DNA of 64,000 nt from Prolixibacteraceae bacterium (GCA_963677935.2 CAXXEH010000003.1:2349820-2413819), one strand, 5' to 3'. Shown: positions 54,041-64,000, counted from the stretch's first letter. Numbers and translations are program-made. The notes: generated by a model from the letters alone, not told the origin.

Positions 54041-54264
54041 ATTCAGTTTGTTTTAAATCTTTAATGTAAACTTAGTTTAATTCCTGTTGCAAAACACTTT
54101 TTCTGAAATTATTTTATGTAATTATTCATGAGTTATTTGCTTGTATAATACGTAGTTTAATGAATTCTTATCCTACGGGTAGAGTTTTCTGGCACTCTCA
54201 ATCGTATCACTCTAAAAACCTTGTGACTTTACCTTATTTTAGTATGCCTTTCTGGACGATTACA

Positions 54265-55491
54265 TTAAAATGGCACCCCCATATTTAATGACCAAGCGTA
54301 GGTATGCATACGCTGTACCTCATCACTTAATATTGGTGTACCCTGACTGTATTTTAGGTCAATTTGCAATGTTTGTCTTTTGTAAATATTGAAGATGCAC
54401 CCAATGCCTGCAACCATACCAAAATTTGAATTCTCGAACTGATTGTCTGTAGATGTTCCCTGATTGCTGGTTCCCGAACCAATTTGGACATAACGAGTAC
54501 TTTTAAAATCAGTTTTAACAGAATAGTTTATAAACACACCACCCTGGAATACAGGTCGGATTTTTCCCCTGGGGAATTCATACCGCATTACAAACGTGTT
54601 GTTAATCGACTTGAAAGTTACCTCCAGATCGTTGTGATAATTAGTACTACTGGATTTAACATTGCTTGCTTTAAAGGTTTTGCTGTCATAAAATGTTTCG
54701 TACTGGAAAAAGAGCCTTTCGTTGAGCGAAGGTAAACTTACTTTTAGAAACAGTCCAAAAGATGGGTTGGTTACGGAATTAAAATCTTTTACATATTCAA
54801 TATCGCCATAGATTTTGGTAGCCATGTTCATAAAATTCATTCCGGCAAAAGGGCCAACAGAGAGGGAAACTTTGGGTACTTTCTTTTCATAGATAATGCA
54901 TTTGCCATTTTTACAAACCTCATCGTTATAATCTTTTGCAATCCTGATCAAAGACTGATGATCCAATTTTACATTGTCGGTTTTGTTTATAACACCTGGG
55001 GCATCCTTAAATTCGTATTTTAATGTTCCCACATATCGTTTAACTTCCTTTACATATTTTGTATTTCCAACTTCAATCTCTTTTTGCTCTTTAATCAATG
55101 GAACCAGGTTACCTTCTTCTTTTTCCAAAAAATAATGTTCATTTGTTCCTTCGCGGTAATAATAGATGTTGGCTATGCCGTTAATGAGAAATTCGAGAAA
55201 CAAATGCTTTTCGCCATCCGTGGTGTTGACTTTTTTTGACACATAATATTTGCTGTCAGTATATCGGTAAGCCTTTATCTCATCGGGCAAATAGGTTCGC
55301 ATTTCCGATTCGCCGCTTTTAATGAATAGGCATCTTTTCGCATTGCTGCGGTTCCCTTTGTAATCTATTTGCCCCACAACAGTATCATTCTTGTTGGTAA
55401 TGATATACCCATCCCGGAAATCGGATTGGGAATAAGCGGTTTTAACAAAAACGACAGAGCCTATCAAGACCAGTAAAATAAATTGTTTCAT
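54265..55491 (-). CDS. outer-membrane beta-barrel protein with N-terminal soluble domain (unknown family)
   Basis: 408 aa with a signal peptide. The C-terminal ~200 aa show an alternating-hydrophobic beta-strand pattern and end in GVPF, a terminal aromatic typical of OMPs. Confidence 0.6.
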   Translation of the reverse strand: MKQFILLVLIGSVVFVKTAYSQSDFRDGYIITNKNDTVVGQIDYKGNRSNAKRCLFIKSGESEMRTYLPDEIKAYRYTDSKYYVSKKVNTTDGEKHLFLEFLINGIANIYYYREGTNEHYFLEKEEGNLVPLIKEQKEIEVGNTKYVKEVKRYVGTLKYEFKDAPGVINKTDNVKLDHQSLIRIAKDYNDEVCKNGKCIIYEKKVPKVSLSVGPFAGMNFMNMATKIYGDIEYVKDFNSVTNPSFGLFLKVSLPSLNERLFFQYETFYDSKTFKASNVKSSSTNYHNDLEVTFKSINNTFVMRYEFPRGKIRPVFQGGVFINYSVKTDFKSTRYVQIGSGTSNQGTSTDNQFENSNFGMVAGIGCIFNIYKRQTLQIDLKYSQGTPILSDEVQRMHTYAWSLNMGVPF

Positions 55492-55650
55492 TTTGCGTTC
55501 GGATAATAAAAATTTCTAATCGTAAAGCTTTTCGACTTCGCCCCGTTTTTTAATTGGTTTCTGATCTCCACTTTTACATTTTCTTACTTTTGCTCACTAT
55601 GGTCTAATATCAATTATAAAGCCATCCTATTTTCGGTTCCTTAGTTGTTT

Positions 55651-58600
55651 TTAATCTTTAACACAGCGCACAGAGAATCCATAAGTCTGAAAAATAGGAG
55701 AATAACCAAAATTTGAATCAGCCGCACTCAATGTTATGCTCCAGGCTTCGGTTGATGAAAGAAAACCGGAACACCAGAATTGACAATAATTACCCAAATC
55801 AAAAAATGCTCCACTAAACATACGTTTACCTCCGGGAAGCGCAGTAAAACCGAATGCATTAGTTGCACCTGCATTGGGACTTAGCCAATGATTAGTTCCG
55901 GTTTCTTTTAAAATGCCTCCAGCAGTGGTAGTCCCCGCTCCCAAACTAGACCACAATGCCGTCCAATCGTCATAAGTAGGCACATGCCATCCTGCAGGAG
56001 CCAACTTCCCGGTATTTACTGTAGACCAATTATATAAAGCGCCATATGGATTTTTATACGATATGTCGTTATTGTACCAGCAATATCCGGGAGTAGTCAG
56101 AGCACTCCATTCCGTATTATCGGTAACCAATGGAATTGGTGTACCATCGTTATATTTTGTTGCACTCAGATTTTCAACCAACCAAACCTGCGTGCCTATC
56201 GTTACACTGGAATAACCATTTCCGTCATTGTCCATTACAGCGAATGTCTTAAATGATTTCACATCGCCATAAGAAGTACCGGCAGAGTTGGTTGCATATG
56301 CCCTTGCATTTAAAGATGTATTTGGTGGCAAAGCTGTCAGGTTACTTATAAAACTTCCGGCCCCGGTTCCATCTGCCGTCTTACTGTCTGAAACAGTAGG
56401 TGTTGCACCCGTACTCCAGCATACACCACGCGCAGTGATGGGTGCATCCCCATCGCTGGTAATGGTTCCACCACTGATAGCTGTTATATCTTTTATCCCA
56501 CTTACATTGGAGGTCGTTAAAACAGGCGGTGTTGGCGCCAAAGTTCTAAAAGAAACAGCACTACCATATCCGGTACCATCAAGATTGGTGGCATAGGCAC
56601 GCACATAATAAGTAATACCTGCCGTTAACCCACTCAGGTTGCTTGTAAAACTTCCCGTCCCTGTTCCATCTGTTGTTTTGCTGTCTAAAATAGTTGGCGT
56701 TGCACCAGTACTCCAGCAAACACCGCGTGCAGTGATTGTCAGACCACCTGCGTTTGTTATGTTTCCACCACCGGTAGCTGAAATTTTTGTTATTTCACTT
56801 AAATCGGATGTTGTTAAAACCGGGGGAGTTGGAGGTAAGGTAATAAACGAAACAATAGTGCCATATCCTGTACCTTCACTATTGGTGGCATATGCACGCA
56901 TATAATAGGTTGTGCCTGCAGATAAACCGGTAAGGTTGCTTATAAAACCACCTGTGCCTGTTCCGTTTGTTGTTTTGCTGTTTAAAATAGTTGGCGTAGC
57001 GCCTGTACTCCAGCAAACACCACGTGCAATGATCGTTGCTCCCCCATCGTTGGTGATGGTTCCACCACTGATAGCCGTGTATTTTGTGATTTCACTTACT
57101 ACAGATGTCGCTAAAAAGGGTGGGGTTAGCGGTAATGTTTTAAACGAAACAGCGCTCCCATATCCCGTACCATCACTATTGGTCGCATAGGCACGTAGAT
57201 AATAGGTTGTGTTTGGGGTTAAACTGTTCACGTTACTTGTAAAACTACCGGCGCCTGTTCCATCTGTTGTTTTACCGTCGGCAATAGTTGGTGTCAGGCC
57301 GGTACTCCAGCAAACACCACGGGCAGTAACTGTCAGACCCCCATCACTTGTAATATTTCCACCACTGATTGCTGTAAAATAGGTTATTCCACTTGCTTCA
57401 GTTGTTGTTAAAACAGGTGGGGTCAGCGGTAATGTTTTAAACGAAATCGCGCTCCCATATCCTGTACCACCACTATTGGTCGCATATGCACGCACATAAT
57501 AGGTTGTGCCTGCGGATAAACCATCCAGACTGCTTATAAAATTTCCCGTTCCATTTCCATCTGTTGTTTTGCTGTTTAATATAGTTGGCGTTGCCCCCAT
57601 ACTCCAGCAAACACCACGTGCGATGATCGTAGCTCCCCCATCGTTTGTAATGGTTCCACCACTGGCAGCTGTAATTTTTGTGATTCCACTAACATCGGAG
57701 GTGGCTAAAACGGGTGGTGTAGGCGATAATGTTGTAAATGAAACAGCACTCCCATATCCTGTACCTTCACTGTTGGTGGCAAAAGCACGTACATAATAAG
57801 TGATACCAGCGGATAAACCAGTTAAATTACCTGTAAAACTTCCCGTTCCTGTTATTTCTGTCGTTTTGCTGTCCGAAATAGTTGGGGTGGCGCCTGTACT
57901 CCAGCAAATGCCACGTATCGTTACCGTTGCTCCTCCATCACTTAGAATGTTTCCGCCACTTTTTGCAGAAATTTTAGTTATTTCAGTCGCATCTGATGTT
58001 GTTAAAACAGGTGGGGTCAGCGACAGTGTTTTAAACGAAACAGCGCTCCCATAGGCTGTACCATCACTATTGGTGGCATATGCACGTATGTAATAAGTTG
58101 TGCCCGGTGACAGACCACTCAGGTTGCCCGTAAAACTTCCGGCGCCTGTTCCATCTGTTGTTTTGCTGTCTGAAATGGTTGGAGAGGCCCCAGTGCTCCA
58201 GCAAACACCTCGTGCAGATACGGTTAAACCCCCGTCGCTCGAAATGGTTCCACCACTTTTAGCAGTTATATAACTTATTGAACTTACATCGGTGGTGGTT
58301 AAAACAGGTAGTGCCAGGGCCTGCGTTGTAAATGAAACAGCATTCCCATATCCTGTTCCAACGCTGGTGGTGGCATAGGCCCGTACATAATAAGTGGTGC
58401 TGGCTGATAATCCGTTCAGGTTACTTGTAAAACTACCGGCTCCCGTTCCATCATTTGTTTTACTGTCCAAAATGGTTGGCGTGGCACCCGTACTCCAGCA
58501 TACGCCATGTGCAGTGATCGTTGAACCACCATCGCTGGTAATGCTTCCACCACTGGCAGCTGTATTTTTTGTTATTCCACTTACAGTAAATGTTGTCAGA

Positions 58601-59595
58601 ACGGGGGGGGTAAGCGCTATTGTTGTAAATGAAACAGCGCTCCCGTATCCTGTGCCATTACTATTGGTCGCATAGGCACGCACATAATAGGTTGTACCTG
58701 GTAATAAATTATTTAGATTGGTTGTGAAAATTCCGGCGCCTGTTCCTTCTGTTGTTTTGCTGTCTGAAATGGTTGGCGTGGCCCCTGTACTCCAGCAAAC
58801 ACCACGGGCAGTAATCATTGAACCTCCATCGTTTGTAATGTTTCCGCCACTTTTCGCGGTAGAATAGGTTATAACACTTACATCGGCAGTTGTTAAAACA
58901 GGTAGTGTCAGCGCTAATGTGCTAAATGAGACAGCGCTCCCGTAACTTGTACCATCACTATTGGTGGCATATGCGCGAAGATAATAGGTTGTGCCTGGCA
59001 ATAAACCAATTGGACTACTGATATAACTTCCGGCACCCGTTCCATCTGTTGTTTTGCTGGCTGCAATAGTTGGCGTGGTACCCGTACTCCAGCAAACTCC
59101 ACGTACAGATACGGTAAGACCTCCATCGCTCGTGATGTTTCCACCACTTTTAGCACTTGTATAACTGATTCCACTTACATCGGAGGTTATTAAAACGGGT
59201 GGAGTGAGTGCTGATGTTGTAAATGAAACAGCGCTCCCGTATCCTGTACCATCACCATTGGTAGCAAATGCCCGCAGATTATAGGTGGTGCCCGGCAATA
59301 ATCCTGTTAAATTGCTGGTAAAACTTCCGTTACCTGGCCCATCGGATGTTTTGGCGTCTGAAATAGTTGGCGTGGCCCCTGTACTCCAGCAAACACCGCG
59401 TGCAATAATGGTCAGACCCTTATCGTCGGTGATACTTCCTCCACTGATCGCAGAAATTTTCGTTATTCCATTTACAGCTGATGTTGTTATTACAGGAGCT
59501 CCTTTTACCTTATCCTTTTTACAACCATTCGTAATAATTAATAAAAATCCAATGGCAATGAACAGATAAATCCAAATACTGCTTTCTTTTCTCAT
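55651..59595 (-). CDS. giant surface lipoprotein: 11 x 99-aa GVCWS (FN3/Ig-like) modules + C-terminal FISUMP (Fibrobacter succinogenes major paralogous, TIGR02145-type) domain
   Basis: 1314 aa with lipoprotein signal ...LLIITNGC (Cys25). There are eleven modules, each with [RH]G[VI]CWS..PT[IV]..KT.DG.G.G.F...L.GL...T.YY.RA[YF]ATN..GTGYG...SF.T. The last 197 aa (55651-56244) end GFSVRCVKD. Confidence 0.85.
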   Translation of the reverse strand: MRKESSIWIYLFIAIGFLLIITNGCKKDKVKGAPVITTSAVNGITKISAISGGSITDDKGLTIIARGVCWSTGATPTISDAKTSDGPGNGSFTSNLTGLLPGTTYNLRAFATNGDGTGYGSAVSFTTSALTPPVLITSDVSGISYTSAKSGGNITSDGGLTVSVRGVCWSTGTTPTIAASKTTDGTGAGSYISSPIGLLPGTTYYLRAYATNSDGTSYGSAVSFSTLALTLPVLTTADVSVITYSTAKSGGNITNDGGSMITARGVCWSTGATPTISDSKTTEGTGAGIFTTNLNNLLPGTTYYVRAYATNSNGTGYGSAVSFTTIALTPPVLTTFTVSGITKNTAASGGSITSDGGSTITAHGVCWSTGATPTILDSKTNDGTGAGSFTSNLNGLSASTTYYVRAYATTSVGTGYGNAVSFTTQALALPVLTTTDVSSISYITAKSGGTISSDGGLTVSARGVCWSTGASPTISDSKTTDGTGAGSFTGNLSGLSPGTTYYIRAYATNSDGTAYGSAVSFKTLSLTPPVLTTSDATEITKISAKSGGNILSDGGATVTIRGICWSTGATPTISDSKTTEITGTGSFTGNLTGLSAGITYYVRAFATNSEGTGYGSAVSFTTLSPTPPVLATSDVSGITKITAASGGTITNDGGATIIARGVCWSMGATPTILNSKTTDGNGTGNFISSLDGLSAGTTYYVRAYATNSGGTGYGSAISFKTLPLTPPVLTTTEASGITYFTAISGGNITSDGGLTVTARGVCWSTGLTPTIADGKTTDGTGAGSFTSNVNSLTPNTTYYLRAYATNSDGTGYGSAVSFKTLPLTPPFLATSVVSEITKYTAISGGTITNDGGATIIARGVCWSTGATPTILNSKTTNGTGTGGFISNLTGLSAGTTYYMRAYATNSEGTGYGTIVSFITLPPTPPVLTTSDLSEITKISATGGGNITNAGGLTITARGVCWSTGATPTILDSKTTDGTGTGSFTSNLSGLTAGITYYVRAYATNLDGTGYGSAVSFRTLAPTPPVLTTSNVSGIKDITAISGGTITSDGDAPITARGVCWSTGATPTVSDSKTADGTGAGSFISNLTALPPNTSLNARAYATNSAGTSYGDVKSFKTFAVMDNDGNGYSSVTIGTQVWLVENLSATKYNDGTPIPLVTDNTEWSALTTPGYCWYNNDISYKNPYGALYNWSTVNTGKLAPAGWHVPTYDDWTALWSSLGAGTTTAGGILKETGTNHWLSPNAGATNAFGFTALPGGKRMFSGAFFDLGNYCQFWCSGFLSSTEAWSITLSAADSNFGYSPIFQTYGFSVRCVKD
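56245..59499 (-). repeat. in-frame 297-bp tandem coding repeat array (11 units)
   Basis: The exact 297-bp period shows in the spacing of the repeated antisense ORF shadows (57506, 57800, 58394, 59285 differ by multiples of 297, +/-3) and in the protein modules. Confidence 0.9.
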
Positions 59596-60011
59596 TTTAC
59601 TTTAGAATTATTATTTCGTTTCAGAATGATTTGTTATCCCATTTCCAGTGAAGGTGAATTAGGTACAACAGGTCACGGGATTATTGATTTAATACCGTAA
59701 AAGTAGCTTAATTGCAATTACAAAATAAATATTAGGAATTAATTTTATGTAAATATTTTGTGGTTATACTTCTGGATTCAATGGGATTTGAATTCAAAAT
59801 TATGTCAGAACTATTTTCAAGTTGAGATCTTCCTTCCGGTTAATGTAAATTTGAGTACCATTGTTGTAGATTTCCTAACGGTCATTGCTTTTTTGGCTAC
59901 AGCGACTATGCCGAAGCAAACACCTTTTATGGTATTACCTGGATTTGGGTTGACCTTATGAACGGCAACTCTGCTTTTATTGAACACACTGATTGTCAAC
60001 TATCCTATCAT

Positions 60012-60040
60012 TGTTGTGCGGATTAAACACCCGCACAACA
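60012..60040 (-). terminator. 10-bp hairpin downstream of the second giant gene (terminator candidate)
   Basis: tgttgtgcgg-attaaacac-ccgcacaaca, 48 nt past the stop at 60088. There is no strong T-run. Confidence 0.35.
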
Positions 60041-60087
60041 CATAGTATATTGACTTATAATTGTATTTAATCAGTCATCAATAGGCA

Positions 60088-63000
60088 TTAGTCTTTAATG
60101 CACCTTACATTAAAACCACAATTTTTATGGTCGTAAAATCGCTGTATTGATGCATTATAATAAAAGATGAACCAATTTATTCCATTAGTTTCACTCTCCG
60201 ATGTAGCTGTCCAAAAGGTTCCGGAACCATCAAAAAAATCGCCATTTTTATTTCGTTGCCCCCCTTGCAATCCTGTAAAACCACTACTGTTATCGGCTCC
60301 GGTATTTGGACTATACCAATGATTAGTACCAGTTTCTTTCATTTTACCTCCGGCAACACTTTCTCCGCCTAAATAGCTTATAAGAGTCACCCATTCGTTG
60401 TCTATTGGTACATGCCATCCGGAAGGGCAAAGTTTACGACTGTCATTTGTCGTATACCAATTATAAAGTAATCCTAATTTCGGATCTACTGAACTGTCAT
60501 TATATTTATAGCAGTAGGCTCCATTTGTAAAATTGCTCCATTGTGTATTATCGGTTATATTGGCAATCGGATCCCCGTTATTAAAGTGTTTTATCCTCAG
60601 ATTTTCAACCAACCAAACCTGGGCGCCTATCGTTACACTGGAATAACCATTTCCATCAATGTCCATTACAGCGAATGTCTTAAATGAGATTGCATTGCCA
60701 TAAGAAGTACCGGCAGAATTTGTAGCATATGCCCTTGCATTTAAAGATGTATTGGGTGGCAAAGCTATCAGGTTACTAATAAAACTTCCCGCCCCGGTTC
60801 CATCTGCCGTCTTACTGTCTGAAACAGTAGGAGTTGCACCTGTACTCCAGCATACACCGCGTGCAGTTATTGATGTTCCCCCATCACTGGTAATTGTTCC
60901 TCCACTGACAGCTGTAATATCTTTTATTCCGCTTACATCGGAGGTTGTTAAAACAGGTGGCGTTGGTGGTAATGTTGTAAATGAAACAACACTCCCATAT
61001 CCTGTGCCTGCACTATTGGTAGCATATGCGCGTACATAATAAGTACTGCCTGCAGTTAACCCAATCAGATTGCTCGTAAAACTTCCCGTCCCTGCTCCAT
61101 CCGTTGTTTTGCTGTCTAAAACAGTTGGCGTTGGACCCGTACTCCAGCAAATGCCATGGGCAGTTATTGTAATACCCCCATCATCTGTAATGGTTCCGCC
61201 ACTGTTTGCTGTGATTTTTGTTATTCCACTAACTTCGGATGTTATTATTAGCGGCGGTGTTGGTGGTAATGTTGTAAATGAAATAGCGTTTCCGTATCCT
61301 GTACCTGCACTATTGGTTGCAAATGCCCGAATATAATAGGTTGTGCCTGCAGTTAAACCGGCAAAGTTGCTTATAAAACCTCCAGTGCCTGTTCCATCTG
61401 TTGTTTTGCTGTCTGAAATCGTAGGTGATGAACCCGTACTCCAGCAAACTCCGCGTACAGTAATTGTTGCTCCCCCATCGCTGGTGATGGTTCCACCACT
61501 GGCAGCAGTGATTTTTGTAATTCCACTTACTGCGGAGGTCGTTAAAACTGGCGGGGTAAGCGGTAATGTTGTAAACGAAACAGCGCTCCCGTATCCTGTA
61601 CCATCACTATTGGTTGCATATGCGCGAAGGTAATAGGTAGTATTTGGAGTTAAACCGATCAGGTTGCTCGTAAAACTACCGGCGCCTGTTCCTTCTGTTG
61701 TTTTGCTGTCTGCAATAGTTGGTGTGGGGCTGGTACTCCAGCAAACACCACGTGCGATGACTGTCAGACCACCTGAACTTGTAATGGTTCCGCCACTTGC
61801 AGCCGTAACATAACTTATTGCACTTATATCAGTGGTCGTTAATACAGGTGGGGTAAGCGGCAATGTTGTAAATAAAACAACACTCCCATATCCTGTACCA
61901 TTACTATTGGTGGCATATGCACGTAGATAATAGGTTGTACCTGCAGATAAACCGGTAAGACTGCTTATAAAACCTCCAGTGCCTGTTCCATCAGTTGTTT
62001 TGCTGTTTAAAATAGTTGGATTAGCGCCTGTACTCCAGCAAACTCCACGGGCATTGATCGTTAATCCCCCATCATTTGTGATGGTTCCACCACTGGTAGC
62101 AGTGATTTTTGTGATTCCAATTACTGCGGAGGTCGTTAAAACTGGCGGGGTAAGCGGTAATGTTGTAAACGAAACAGCGCTCCCGTATCCTGTACCATCA
62201 CTATTGGTTGCATATGCACGCAGGTAATAGGTAGTATTTGGAGTTAAACCGATCAGGTTGCTCGTAAAACTTCCGGCGCCTGTTCCATCTGTTGTTTTGC
62301 TGTCTGCAATAGTTGGTGTGGGGCTGGTACTCCAACAAACACCACGTGCGGTGACCATCAAACCACCATCGCTTGAAATATTTCCACCACCAGTAGCGGT
62401 AACATAGCTTAATGCACTTATGTCGGTGGTCGTTAAAACAGGTGGGGTAAGCGGCAATGTTGTAAATAAAACAACACTCCCATATCCTGTACCATTACTA
62501 TTGGTTGCATATGCACGTAGATAATAGGTTGTACCTGCAGATAAACCGGTAAGACTGCTTATAAAACCTCCAGTGCCTGTTCCATCAGTTGTTTTGCTGT
62601 TTAATATAGTTGGCGTTGCCCCCATACTCCAGCAAACACCACGTGCAATGATCGTAGCTCCCCCATCGTTTGTAATGGTTCCACCACTGGCAGCAGTGAT
62701 TTTTGTGATTCCACTTACTGCGGAGGTCGTTAAAACTGGCGGGGTAAGCGGTAATGTTGTAAACGAAACAGCGCTCCCGTATCCTGTACCATCACTATTG
62801 GTTGCATAGGCACGCAGGTAATAGGTAGTATTTGGAGTTAAACCGATCAGGTTGCTCGTAAAACTACCGGCGCCTGTTCCATCCATTGTTTTGTTGTTCA
62901 AAATGGTTGGCGTATCCCCTGTACTCCAGCATACACCACGGGCAGTAATTGTCAGACCTCCATCAATTGTAATATTTCCACCACTGATTGCTGTAAAATA

Positions 63001-64000
63001 GGTTATTCCGCTTGCTTCAGTTGTTGTTAAAACAGGTGGGGTAAGCGGTAATGTTTTAAATGAAACCGTACTACCATATCCTGTACCACTACTATTGGTC
63101 GCATATGCGCGTACATAATAGGTTGTGCCTGCTGATAAACCAACCAGACTACCTGAAAAAATTATGGCACCAGTTCCATCAGCTGTTTTGTTGCCCGAAA
63201 TGGTTGGGGTGGTACCCGTACTCCAGCAAACACCACGTACCGTTATGGCCGCTCCCCCATCATTTATAATGGTTCCACCACTGGTAGCTGTCATTTTTGT
63301 GATTCCACTAACATCGGAGGTTATTAATACTGGTAGTGTTGGCAGTGTTGTTGTGAATGAAACAGCACTCCCATATCCTGTACCTTCACTGTTGGTGGCA
63401 AAAGCACGTACATAATAAGTGATGCCAGCGGATAAACCAGTTAAATTACCTGTAAAACTTCCCGTTCCTGTTATTTCTGTCGTTTTGCTGTCCGAAATAG
63501 TTGGGGTGGCGCCTGTACTCCAGCAAATGCCACGTATCGTTACTGTTGCACCTCCATCGCTCAGAATGTTTCCGCCACTTTTTGCAGAAATTTTAGTTAT
63601 TTCAGTTGCATCTGATGTTGTTAAAACAGGTGGGGTCAGCGACAGTGTTTTAAACGAAACAGCGCTCCCATAGGCTGTACCATCAATATTGGTGGCATAT
63701 GCACGTACGTAATAAGTTGTGCCCGGTGACAGACCACTCAGGTTGCCCGTAAAACTTCCGGCGCCTGTTCCATCTGTTGTTTTGCTGTCTGAAATTGTTG
63801 GACTGACCCCCGTACTCCAGCAAACACCTCGTGCAGATACGGTTAAACCCCCGTCGCTCGAAATGGTTCCACCACTTTTAGCAGTTATATAACTTATTGC
63901 ACTTACATCGGTGGTGGTTAAAACAGGTAATGTCAGGGCAAGTGTTGTAAATGAAACAGCGCTCCCATATCCTGTTCCAACGCTGGTGGTGGCATATGCC
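60088..64000 (-). CDS. second giant GVCWS-module / FISUMP-domain protein, 5' end beyond window
   Basis: The track start at 63294 is an internal Met. Codons upstream read ...YYVRAFATNSEGTGYGSAVSFTTTLPTLPVLITSDVSGITK-M-TATSGG, and I saw no stop up to nt 64000. At least 11 modules lie in the window. The C-terminal 195 aa (60088-60675) end GFNVRCIKD. Confidence 0.85.
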   Translation of the reverse strand, partial: AYATTSVGTGYGSAVSFTTLALTLPVLTTTDVSAISYITAKSGGTISSDGGLTVSARGVCWSTGVSPTISDSKTTDGTGAGSFTGNLSGLSPGTTYYVRAYATNIDGTAYGSAVSFKTLSLTPPVLTTSDATEITKISAKSGGNILSDGGATVTIRGICWSTGATPTISDSKTTEITGTGSFTGNLTGLSAGITYYVRAFATNSEGTGYGSAVSFTTTLPTLPVLITSDVSGITKMTATSGGTIINDGGAAITVRGVCWSTGTTPTISGNKTADGTGAIIFSGSLVGLSAGTTYYVRAYATNSSGTGYGSTVSFKTLPLTPPVLTTTEASGITYFTAISGGNITIDGGLTITARGVCWSTGDTPTILNNKTMDGTGAGSFTSNLIGLTPNTTYYLRAYATNSDGTGYGSAVSFTTLPLTPPVLTTSAVSGITKITAASGGTITNDGGATIIARGVCWSMGATPTILNSKTTDGTGTGGFISSLTGLSAGTTYYLRAYATNSNGTGYGSVVLFTTLPLTPPVLTTTDISALSYVTATGGGNISSDGGLMVTARGVCWSTSPTPTIADSKTTDGTGAGSFTSNLIGLTPNTTYYLRAYATNSDGTGYGSAVSFTTLPLTPPVLTTSAVIGITKITATSGGTITNDGGLTINARGVCWSTGANPTILNSKTTDGTGTGGFISSLTGLSAGTTYYLRAYATNSNGTGYGSVVLFTTLPLTPPVLTTTDISAISYVTAASGGTITSSGGLTVIARGVCWSTSPTPTIADSKTTEGTGAGSFTSNLIGLTPNTTYYLRAYATNSDGTGYGSAVSFTTLPLTPPVLTTSAVSGITKITAASGGTITSDGGATITVRGVCWSTGSSPTISDSKTTDGTGTGGFISNFAGLTAGTTYYIRAFATNSAGTGYGNAISFTTLPPTPPLIITSEVSGITKITANSGGTITDDGGITITAHGICWSTGPTPTVLDSKTTDGAGTGSFTSNLIGLTAGSTYYVRAYATNSAGTGYGSVVSFTTLPPTPPVLTTSDVSGIKDITAVSGGTITSDGGTSITARGVCWSTGATPTVSDSKTADGTGAGSFISNLIALPPNTSLNARAYATNSAGTSYGNAISFKTFAVMDIDGNGYSSVTIGAQVWLVENLRIKHFNNGDPIANITDNTQWSNFTNGAYCYKYNDSSVDPKLGLLYNWYTTNDSRKLCPSGWHVPIDNEWVTLISYLGGESVAGGKMKETGTNHWYSPNTGADNSSGFTGLQGGQRNKNGDFFDGSGTFWTATSESETNGINWFIFYYNASIQRFYDHKNCGFNVRCIKD
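60676..64000 (-). repeat. in-frame 297-bp tandem coding repeat array (>=11 units, continues past window), including a near-identical 594-bp double unit
   Basis: The string cggtaatgttgtaaacgaaacagcgctcccgtatcctgtaccatcactattggttgcata recurs at 61561, 62155 and 62749, i.e. 594-bp steps. Confidence 0.9.

Follow-up and report, generated by a model that had tools for sequence, protein, structure and literature searches.

A tandem pair of giant, predicted lipoproteins with fibronectin-III stalks and FISUMP heads in a Prolixibacteraceae genome

The stretch of DNA analyzed here, hereafter the window, comprises 64,000 nt of the genome of a Prolixibacteraceae bacterium (GCA_963677935.2, CAXXEH010000003.1:2349820-2413819) and carries, at positions 55651-64000, a tandem pair of giant genes, both on the minus strand, that together occupy 8350 nt, or 13% of the window. 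An earlier note on this DNA had described a same-strand pair 492 bp apart and more than 8 kb long that codes for lipoproteins in which a stalk of 99-aa modules is capped by a head, the Fibrobacter succinogenes major paralogous (FISUMP) domain, and the coordinates of the open reading frames (ORFs) bear out this layout. The features of the pair, whose modules resemble fibronectin type III (FnIII) domains, are as follows.

55651..59595, minus strand: gene 1, a complete coding sequence of 1314 aa consisting of a signal, a short linker, 11 modules and a FISUMP head (ORF list, translation, family matches)
59521..59595, minus strand: putative signal peptide of gene 1, with a lipobox-like ...ITNG-C25 followed by KKDKVK (read from the translation)
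56230..59496, minus strand: gene 1 stalk, 11 tandem 99-aa (297-nt) FnIII-like modules, aa 34-1122, with Pro-rich linkers (TLPLTPPV)
55654..56229, minus strand: head 1, FISUMP, aa 1123-1314, 192-197 aa (PF09603, TIGR02145, AlphaFold2)
55675..55824, minus strand: hypervariable C-terminal segment of head 1, aa ~1258-1307, the proposed ligand-binding face (column entropy, correspondence to a diversified relative)
59596..60087, minus strand: intergenic spacer of 492 nt (sequence read)
60088..64000, minus strand: 3' part of gene 2, at least 1303 aa, with a module fragment, 11 full modules and a FISUMP head (open frame, family matches)
60661..63927, minus strand: gene 2 stalk, 11 full modules within the window (module identity matrix)
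60091..60660, minus strand: head 2, FISUMP, 190 aa (PF09603, TIGR02145, BLASTP against head 1)

The stalk modules of the two giant genes

The translation of gene 1 starts with MRKESSIWIYLFIAIGFLLIITNGC, which includes Cys25, and terminates in GFSVRCVKD, so that both the lipoprotein signal and the C-terminal domain previously read for this gene are seen in the translation. Gene 2 has its stop codon at 60088-60090; its frame is open up to the end of the window and the N-terminus lies beyond nt 64000. The CWS anchor of the modules recurs at an exact spacing of 99 aa, 11 times in each gene, and at its upstream edge gene 2 holds the last 24 aa of one further module, in agreement with the claim that it follows the same plan, with at least 11 modules and a frame still open at nt 64000. 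No further copies of modules or heads were found elsewhere in the window. Tandem Repeats Finder identified a period of 297 with 10.6 and 10.8 copies, 74-75% matches and 0% indels, so the repeats, announced as exact 99-aa modules, are exact in length only: the spacing is invariant, whereas the sequences are no exact copies, with module-to-module identities of 57-97% (mean 70%) in protein and a mean of 74% in DNA. Modules 4-9 of gene 2 alternate between two subtypes (A and B) and thus form a 594-nt super-repeat, in which modules 5 and 7 are 94% and modules 6 and 8 are 91% identical. The best module pair of gene 1 reaches 82% identity, between non-adjacent modules only, and two modules are 96-97% identical between genes 1 and 2.

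The modules match Pfam fn3 (PF00041) with 96.9 and 86 bits summed over each protein (cut-off 25), and the matches to fn3 and to several Fn3-like families cover mainly the C-terminal half of the profiles. In the AlphaFold2 (AF2) model of two modules plus the head, built from 113 sequences (predicted local distance difference test score, pLDDT, 96.8; predicted template-modeling score, pTM, 0.80), each module consists of 7 strands, and Foldseek searches with this model gave tandem FnIII domains (LAR, titin, neogenin) as the top PDB matches, at E values from 5.6e-9 to 2.5e-7. Profile searches and predicted structure, the check proposed in the earlier note, thus converge on the FnIII fold: the 99-aa modules are diverged FnIII domains and do not constitute a new fold. 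Weak Pfam and NCBIfam matches to NAR2, Pur_ac_phosph_N, PetP/Tsr0524 and GBD_T9SS_assoc were disregarded as partial Fn3-like or compositional. The modules are under purifying selection, with ratios of nonsynonymous to synonymous substitution rates (dN/dS) of 0.03-0.24. Every module contains a single near-invariant Cys within GVCWS (59388-59402 in module 1) and no second one; a stalk with 11 or more cysteines that are unpaired within their own module is therefore found in a protein predicted to be extracellular.

FISUMP heads and a retroelement-diversified relative

Profile searches place the C-terminal domains of both proteins in the FISUMP family, as had been recognized from the sequence. The scores for PF09603 (Fib_succ_major; curated cut-off 33.9) are 133.4 bits (E 1.5e-38) for head 1 and 136.1 bits (E 2.2e-39) for head 2, and those for TIGR02145 (cut-off 41.65) are 102.4 bits (E 4.5e-29) and 109.3 bits (E 3.4e-31), respectively. 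Both heads span the entire PF09603 profile (positions 1-187 of 187) and are 51% identical to each other (BLASTP). Pfam and NCBIfam searches detected neither the Por_Secre_tail sorting domain (PF18962) of the type IX secretion system (T9SS) nor any enzyme family in either protein, both of which end with the FISUMP domain; the absence of a sorting domain and of an enzyme motif had been remarked upon before.

The AF2 model of the head alone (pLDDT 96.4) suggests a C-type-lectin-like fold. Domains of this kind dominate the Foldseek list only at non-significant scores, so the fold is suggested rather than shown. Neither a single-sequence search nor a search with a 120-sequence profile recovered head relatives from the PDB. 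Among the models of a viral library, the head resembles phage proteins that carry the FISUMP annotation (E 2.7e-23, TM-score 0.86) and, weakly, phage DUF1566 models (E 0.014-0.018); the PHROGs collection gave no match for the heads, and only 4 phage records matched them in tblastn. Some homologs of the module-plus-head unit match both the FISUMP and the DUF1566 families.

Variation within the head is concentrated in one segment. Across 120 family members, residues 141-190 are hypervariable, with a column entropy of 2.6-3.1 bits compared with 0.7-1.9 bits elsewhere; this segment sits just before the conserved G-x-S-V-R-C-x-K-D end, and the two window heads are 10% identical over residues 161-180. 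A relative of gene 1, P0100 (410 aa, two modules and a FISUMP head, 59% identity to the gene 1 tail), is followed in two contigs by genes for bAvd and for a reverse transcriptase. The 3' end of the P0100 gene and a copy located 854 nt downstream make up the variable repeat (VR) and template repeat (TR) of a diversity-generating retroelement (DGR), with 29 of the 34 mismatches falling on adenines of the template. The VR corresponds in position to the part of the head that is hypervariable in the window proteins. DGR surveys place Fib_succ_major/DUF1566 domains among the C-type-lectin targets of these elements, an example being the surface lipoprotein LdtA (PMC5758913), which resembles the predicted window proteins also in being a surface lipoprotein with an exposed C-terminus. 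In the classification of DGR targets (CLec2/category d), LdtA and P0100 share with the window a homologous head in which the hypervariable segment coincides with the variable region. The idea of a ligand-binding head gains support from this close relative, whose head is DGR-diversified in the very segment that differs between the window heads.

As assembled (L019, 9115-9315 and 9969-10170), the P0100 VR lacks 1 nt of the template, so that the called gene ends early and the conserved GFSVRC end lies in another frame; this deletion may have arisen in the assembly of sequences from a diversified population.

The window differs from such DGR targets. A DGR acting in cis was considered and rejected, given that no template repeat, Avd or reverse transcriptase is present in the window or at the locus that is its closest relative among those we found (L002, from a Prolixibacteraceae metagenome-assembled genome, MAG, on a 3.0-Mb contig). 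A second copy of either head 3' region was not found in the window besides the paralog, tblastn with the L019 reverse transcriptase and Avd gave no match in the window or in L001-L018, and RVT_1 is missing among the neighboring genes. Judging from the sequences, head diversity at the window locus would reflect ordinary divergence and recombination.

Head 1 (55654-56244) also departs from the family in lacking the conserved Cys82 (KLAPAGWHVP, consensus KLCPxGWHVP), which is replaced by Ala, and in having two other cysteines, at head positions 154 and 158. Both L002 heads likewise read KLAPAGWHVP, and head 2 retains all three family-conserved cysteines.

A syntenic pair with different stalk lengths

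The L002 locus carries the same tandem giant pair, followed by the genes for the iron-containing alcohol dehydrogenase (Fe-ADH), which is 92% identical in protein sequence to that of the window, and PNPase. Its proteins are 1906 aa and 1711 aa long, with 17 and 15 modules, respectively, at perfect 99-aa spacing. Module positions are preserved: modules 1-5 of gene 1 are 89-95% identical in nucleotide sequence to modules 1-5 of both L002 genes, and the first module of gene 2 that is complete in the window corresponds, at 96% identity, to position 5 of the L002 ortholog. Some 4 more modules are therefore expected upstream, and gene 2 probably has about 15 modules in total. Gene 1 thus has 11 modules where L002 has 15, and gene 2 has at least 12 (an estimated 15) where L002 has 17; the differences are multiples of two modules, that is, of the 594-nt unit, and are located midway along the stalks, where in each case the A and B subtypes alternate. 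Recent duplication is suggested by one of the L002 genes, whose modules 9, 11 and 13 share 99-100% identity. The proposal of a length-adjustable stalk presenting a head thereby receives comparative support.

The two ends of the L002 paralogs behave differently, modules 1-5 being 98-100% identical in nucleotide sequence and the heads 66% identical. Such near-identity of stalk modules between tandem paralogs fits gene conversion or very recent exchange. Head 1 and the head of the downstream L002 gene are 80% identical, whereas head 2 shares only 46-49% identity with any of the other three heads of the window and L002. In a sliding-window comparison of gene 2 with its L002 ortholog, identity remains at 92-98% across the last two modules and up to a point some 60 nt into the head and then drops to 50-60%, an abrupt change that indicates replacement of the head by recombination. 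Other head pairs are also mosaic, and divergence is greatest in the last third of the head. Just past the gene 1 stop, a 33-nt stretch (55607-55639) shares 85% identity with a segment inside the coding sequence of head 2 (E 2e-4) and may have been left behind by a past recombination event or by a FISUMP gene since lost.

Taken together with the repeats, these comparisons outline how the pair may evolve. Stalk length would shift via unequal recombination among similar 297/594-nt repeats, gene conversion would homogenize the stalks of the tandem paralogs, and heads would be replaced, or diverge, through recombination. A stronger version, in which the pair is a recombination-driven surface-lectin system with conversion-homogenized bases, unequal crossing-over by two modules and heads or faces swapped as cassettes from other FISUMP genes, we put forward tentatively, as a possibility with the chances rather against it. 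If true, it would be a DGR-independent route to diversification like that achieved by DGRs in relatives, and the first periscope-type system described for lipid-anchored proteins of Bacteroidota.

Repeats of this kind also raise the question of assembly, because 297-nt units can collapse or expand in assemblies and some unit pairs are 91-97% identical; the locus could then be a single repetitive gene split in two, a pair with wrong module counts, or decaying pseudogenes. This explanation is extremely improbable. The heads are 51% identical, each gene has its own stop, mean repeat identity is just 74% at the nucleotide level, and each gene has an uninterrupted frame of 3.9 kb. The source contig is 6.5 Mb long, and the same pair, with the flanking Fe-ADH and PNPase genes, recurs in an independent contig, that of L002, so the two genes do not represent an assembly artifact of one. 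Decay is likewise at odds with dN/dS well under 1; for gene 1 it is 0.05-0.24 against the positional orthologs, as befits a functional coding gene.

Downstream of the pair, on the same strand, follow genes for a 408-aa OMP_b-brl_2 protein (OMP, outer membrane protein), Fe-ADH, S15, PNPase, a deoxynucleoside kinase and a TPR protein. The OMP was considered as a conserved partner, its neighborhood being among the checks suggested earlier, and rejected because it is missing at the syntenic L002 locus, where an ORF of equal length, 408 aa, is unrelated and corresponds to the Fe-ADH ortholog. Together with an RNA leader, the OMP gene forms a 1.57-kb indel relative to L002 (window ~54080-55650, from just past the gene 1 stop); in L002 the second giant gene runs straight into the region upstream of Fe-ADH. 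An OMP_b-brl_2 neighbor occurs in none of the 6 other FISUMP loci examined. The leader is the following feature.

55509-55576, minus strand: DUF805 RNA motif (RF03081, cis-regulatory), 64.3 bits against a gathering threshold of 51.1, model positions 1-68 (full)

The motif is located 75 nt past the gene 1 stop and 17 nt ahead of the OMP gene start, and the gene downstream of it does not encode a DUF805 protein. The spacer between the giant genes is 492 nt long in the window and 82 nt in L002 (11174-11255), and the extra ~400 nt show no match to heads or modules. It contains an 8-bp GC-rich inverted repeat at ~60014-60038, about 50 nt past the gene 2 stop, which lacks a T tract and which the terminator scan did not call, and the motif TAATTTTG at 59795-59802. 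Across the window, the TAnnTTTG motif occurs at chance level, and promoter and terminator scans gave counts at or below chance.

Family distribution, surface exposure and proposed function

The architecture is widespread in Bacteroidota and evolves quickly. A query consisting of the last module and the head retrieved at least 7800 proteins, the best 120 of which measure 387-510 aa and come mostly from Bacteroidales, Marinilabiliales and related MAGs. Typical members of the FISUMP family have 2-3 modules and 390-510 aa, compared with 11 and at least 12 modules in the window genes. With 1199 aa of gene 1 as the query, 79,288 cluster representatives were found at E<=0.001 and 18,539 at E<=1e-30; the best 150 of these clusters span 1016-7786 aa, and a FISUMP head is present in 80 of them, at the C-terminus in 61. 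The combination of 8 or more modules with a C-terminal FISUMP head was seen in 40 of the best 150 clusters, that is, in at least 40, and P0258, P0245, P0175 and P0268 have the full plan in common, the ...SC-KK signal included. FISUMP genes are frequently arranged in tandem, and the family has been described with a lipoprotein signal and conserved cysteines (PMC5758913). The window genes share with it the full-length C-terminal heads, the tandem paralogs and the N-terminal Fn3-like modules, and gene 1 has a predicted lipoprotein-type N-terminus. With thousands of Fn3-plus-FISUMP proteins and dozens of giant clusters in existence, the description of the pair as the most unusual content of the window goes too far: the locus belongs to a widespread, uncharacterized class, of which it is a large and well-preserved example, and does not represent a new kind of system.

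The class also includes other arrangements. P0190, P0168, P0163 and P0156 (3300-7800 aa) have 10-11 FISUMP heads interspersed among modules like beads on a string, and many multi-head relatives have an ordinary signal peptide instead of a lipoprotein signal. One MAG contig (L022, 4762-15006) holds five FISUMP genes in a row, three of them with the T9SS Por_Secre_tail, so that one head type is combined with different export routes across paralogs.

For the window pair, the N-terminus of gene 1 points to the cell surface. Cys25 is preceded by a hydrophobic stretch, both L002 orthologs begin with the same lipoprotein signal, and homologs have a hydrophobic N-terminus followed by Cys and K-K-[D/E], typically ...SC-KK-[DE]. 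The KKDKVK that follows Cys25 is a partial match to the published lipoprotein export signal of Bacteroidetes, K-(D/E)2 (PMC5080379). On the basis of this signal and partial match, the products of genes 1 and 2 are probably lipid-anchored, surface-exposed proteins. The single acidic residue after the Cys would also suit lipoproteins that face the periplasm or the cell interior. We hold this to be very unlikely, as a rod of 11-17 FnIII domains would presumably far exceed the width of the periplasm, and relatives that share these domains have T9SS sorting tails or are DGR targets, which points to an extracellular role.

On this evidence we consider it reasonably probable that the pair encodes variable-length, lipid-anchored surface proteins in which FnIII stalks present two different lectin-like heads that bind ligands through their hypervariable face. 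The two paralogs would be outer-membrane lipoproteins anchored by an N-terminal lipidated Cys, each a rod of tandem FnIII domains with short Pro-rich linkers. An FnIII domain is 3.5-4 nm long. The rod would accordingly extend about 40 nm with 11 domains and 55-65 nm with 15-17, keeping the C-terminal FISUMP head, probably C-type-lectin-like, away from the cell. The head would bind a glycan, most likely, or another surface structure through the hypervariable C-terminal face, and since these faces differ between the paralogs, the specificities probably differ as well.

Several observations weigh against this reading. The KKDK after the Cys has one acidic residue where the published export signal has two, which leaves surface exposure uncertain, and the signal is read in gene 1 alone because the N-terminus of gene 2 lies beyond the window. 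Foldseek found no significant PDB match for the head model (best E 0.17), and neither window protein matches DUF1566 (PF07603) at E<=0.1. The differences in module number are between two related genomes and not between strains. The neighboring genes are housekeeping genes. Searches of PMC and bioRxiv found no experiments on any FISUMP protein, and these sources and the PDB yielded no solved structure, known ligand or tested function for a member of the family.

The stalk and the head also suggest two other functions. The stalks make up ~85% of each protein and differ in length between relatives, so they could form a dense coat, a steric shield or spacer brush that masks the surface from phages, predators or host factors, with the heads playing a minor or capping part; SasG and Pls, two Periscope Proteins, reportedly make other surface proteins inaccessible (PMC8201768). 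Such a role is improbable for a protein whose head scaffold is strongly conserved across the family and bears a focused hypervariable patch, diversified by a DGR in a relative as is typical of ligand-binding sites, and most family members, with their 2-3 modules, would be too short for it.

Alternatively, the heads could serve nutrition, capturing soluble or particulate polysaccharide and passing it to glycoside hydrolases, and not be adhesins. Each module has a homolog in the N-terminal domain of BT0360-type lipoprotein endo-arabinanases (NF049889), aligning to the non-catalytic positions 37-131 in 11 stretches per protein; the window proteins, however, lack the GH43 catalytic part, and their identity as arabinanases is excluded because the total of 324 bits is far under the 600-bit cut-off. 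The upstream region of the L002 pair holds a GH43 gene with an F5/8-type-C domain, directly next to the pair, and a NUDIX gene but no SusC/D, and genes for GH59 and a cellulase, for GH30 and for GH53 occur within a few kb of other relatives. In addition, a FISUMP protein has been detected in the envelope proteome of the cellulolytic Fibrobacter succinogenes (PMC4619616). We take the nearby glycoside hydrolase genes as a weak hint of glycan ligands; such genes are so frequent in Bacteroidota that adjacency weighs little. In the window, no SusC/SusD pair or hydrolase is found within 14 kb downstream of the pair, which sets it apart from Sus-like glycan-binding proteins with their adjoining polysaccharide utilization locus. 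A stalk of 40-60 nm would, to our knowledge, also be untypical of known Sus-like binding proteins. Overall, glycan capture for nutrition appears rather unlikely, though it deserves more weight than a shield.

Surface proteins in which a ligand-binding head sits on a variable stalk, as we propose here, have counterparts in other bacteria. The Periscope Proteins and fibrillar adhesins SasG, Rib, Sgo_0707 and CdrA (PMC8201768) similarly have tandem folded domains and Pro-containing linkers as a predicted stalk, a putative binding domain distal to the anchor, and a repeat number that varies between related genomes, although here between species and not strains. Their polarity is reversed, the anchor being a C-terminal LPXTG instead of an N-terminal lipid, and the class is defined by 80% repeat identity (Whelan et al. 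2021). At 65-75%, most adjacent window modules fall below this value, which also counts against the proposed reading; only the two-module super-repeat of gene 2 lies above it (198-aa unit, modules 5-6 versus 7-8, 94% and 91%). The Legionella protein Lcl, which binds glycosaminoglycans through a DUF1566 head on a repeat stalk (PMC11162425), has the same lollipop plan, a repeat stalk and a C-terminal head of the DUF1566/C-type-lectin-like kind; DGR surveys group DUF1566 and Fib_succ_major into a single structural class. In Lcl, the stalk is a trimeric collagen triple helix and export proceeds through the type II secretion system, in contrast to the single-chain FnIII stalk on a predicted lipoprotein in the window, where the heads also lack the PF07603 match.

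The value of the locus lies in the comparative evidence for changes in stalk length, homogenization of stalks and replacement of heads, and in the location of the likely binding face. It offers a natural comparison, in which a relative has the same pair with other stalk lengths and swapped heads. It also provides a mapped putative binding face, backed by a DGR-targeted relative, and high-confidence models from which studies of binding and structure could start. FISUMP domains occur in very large numbers in Bacteroidota and Fibrobacter; should the heads turn out to be lectins or adhesins, this family would explain part of the attachment of these bacteria to particles, polysaccharides or other cells.

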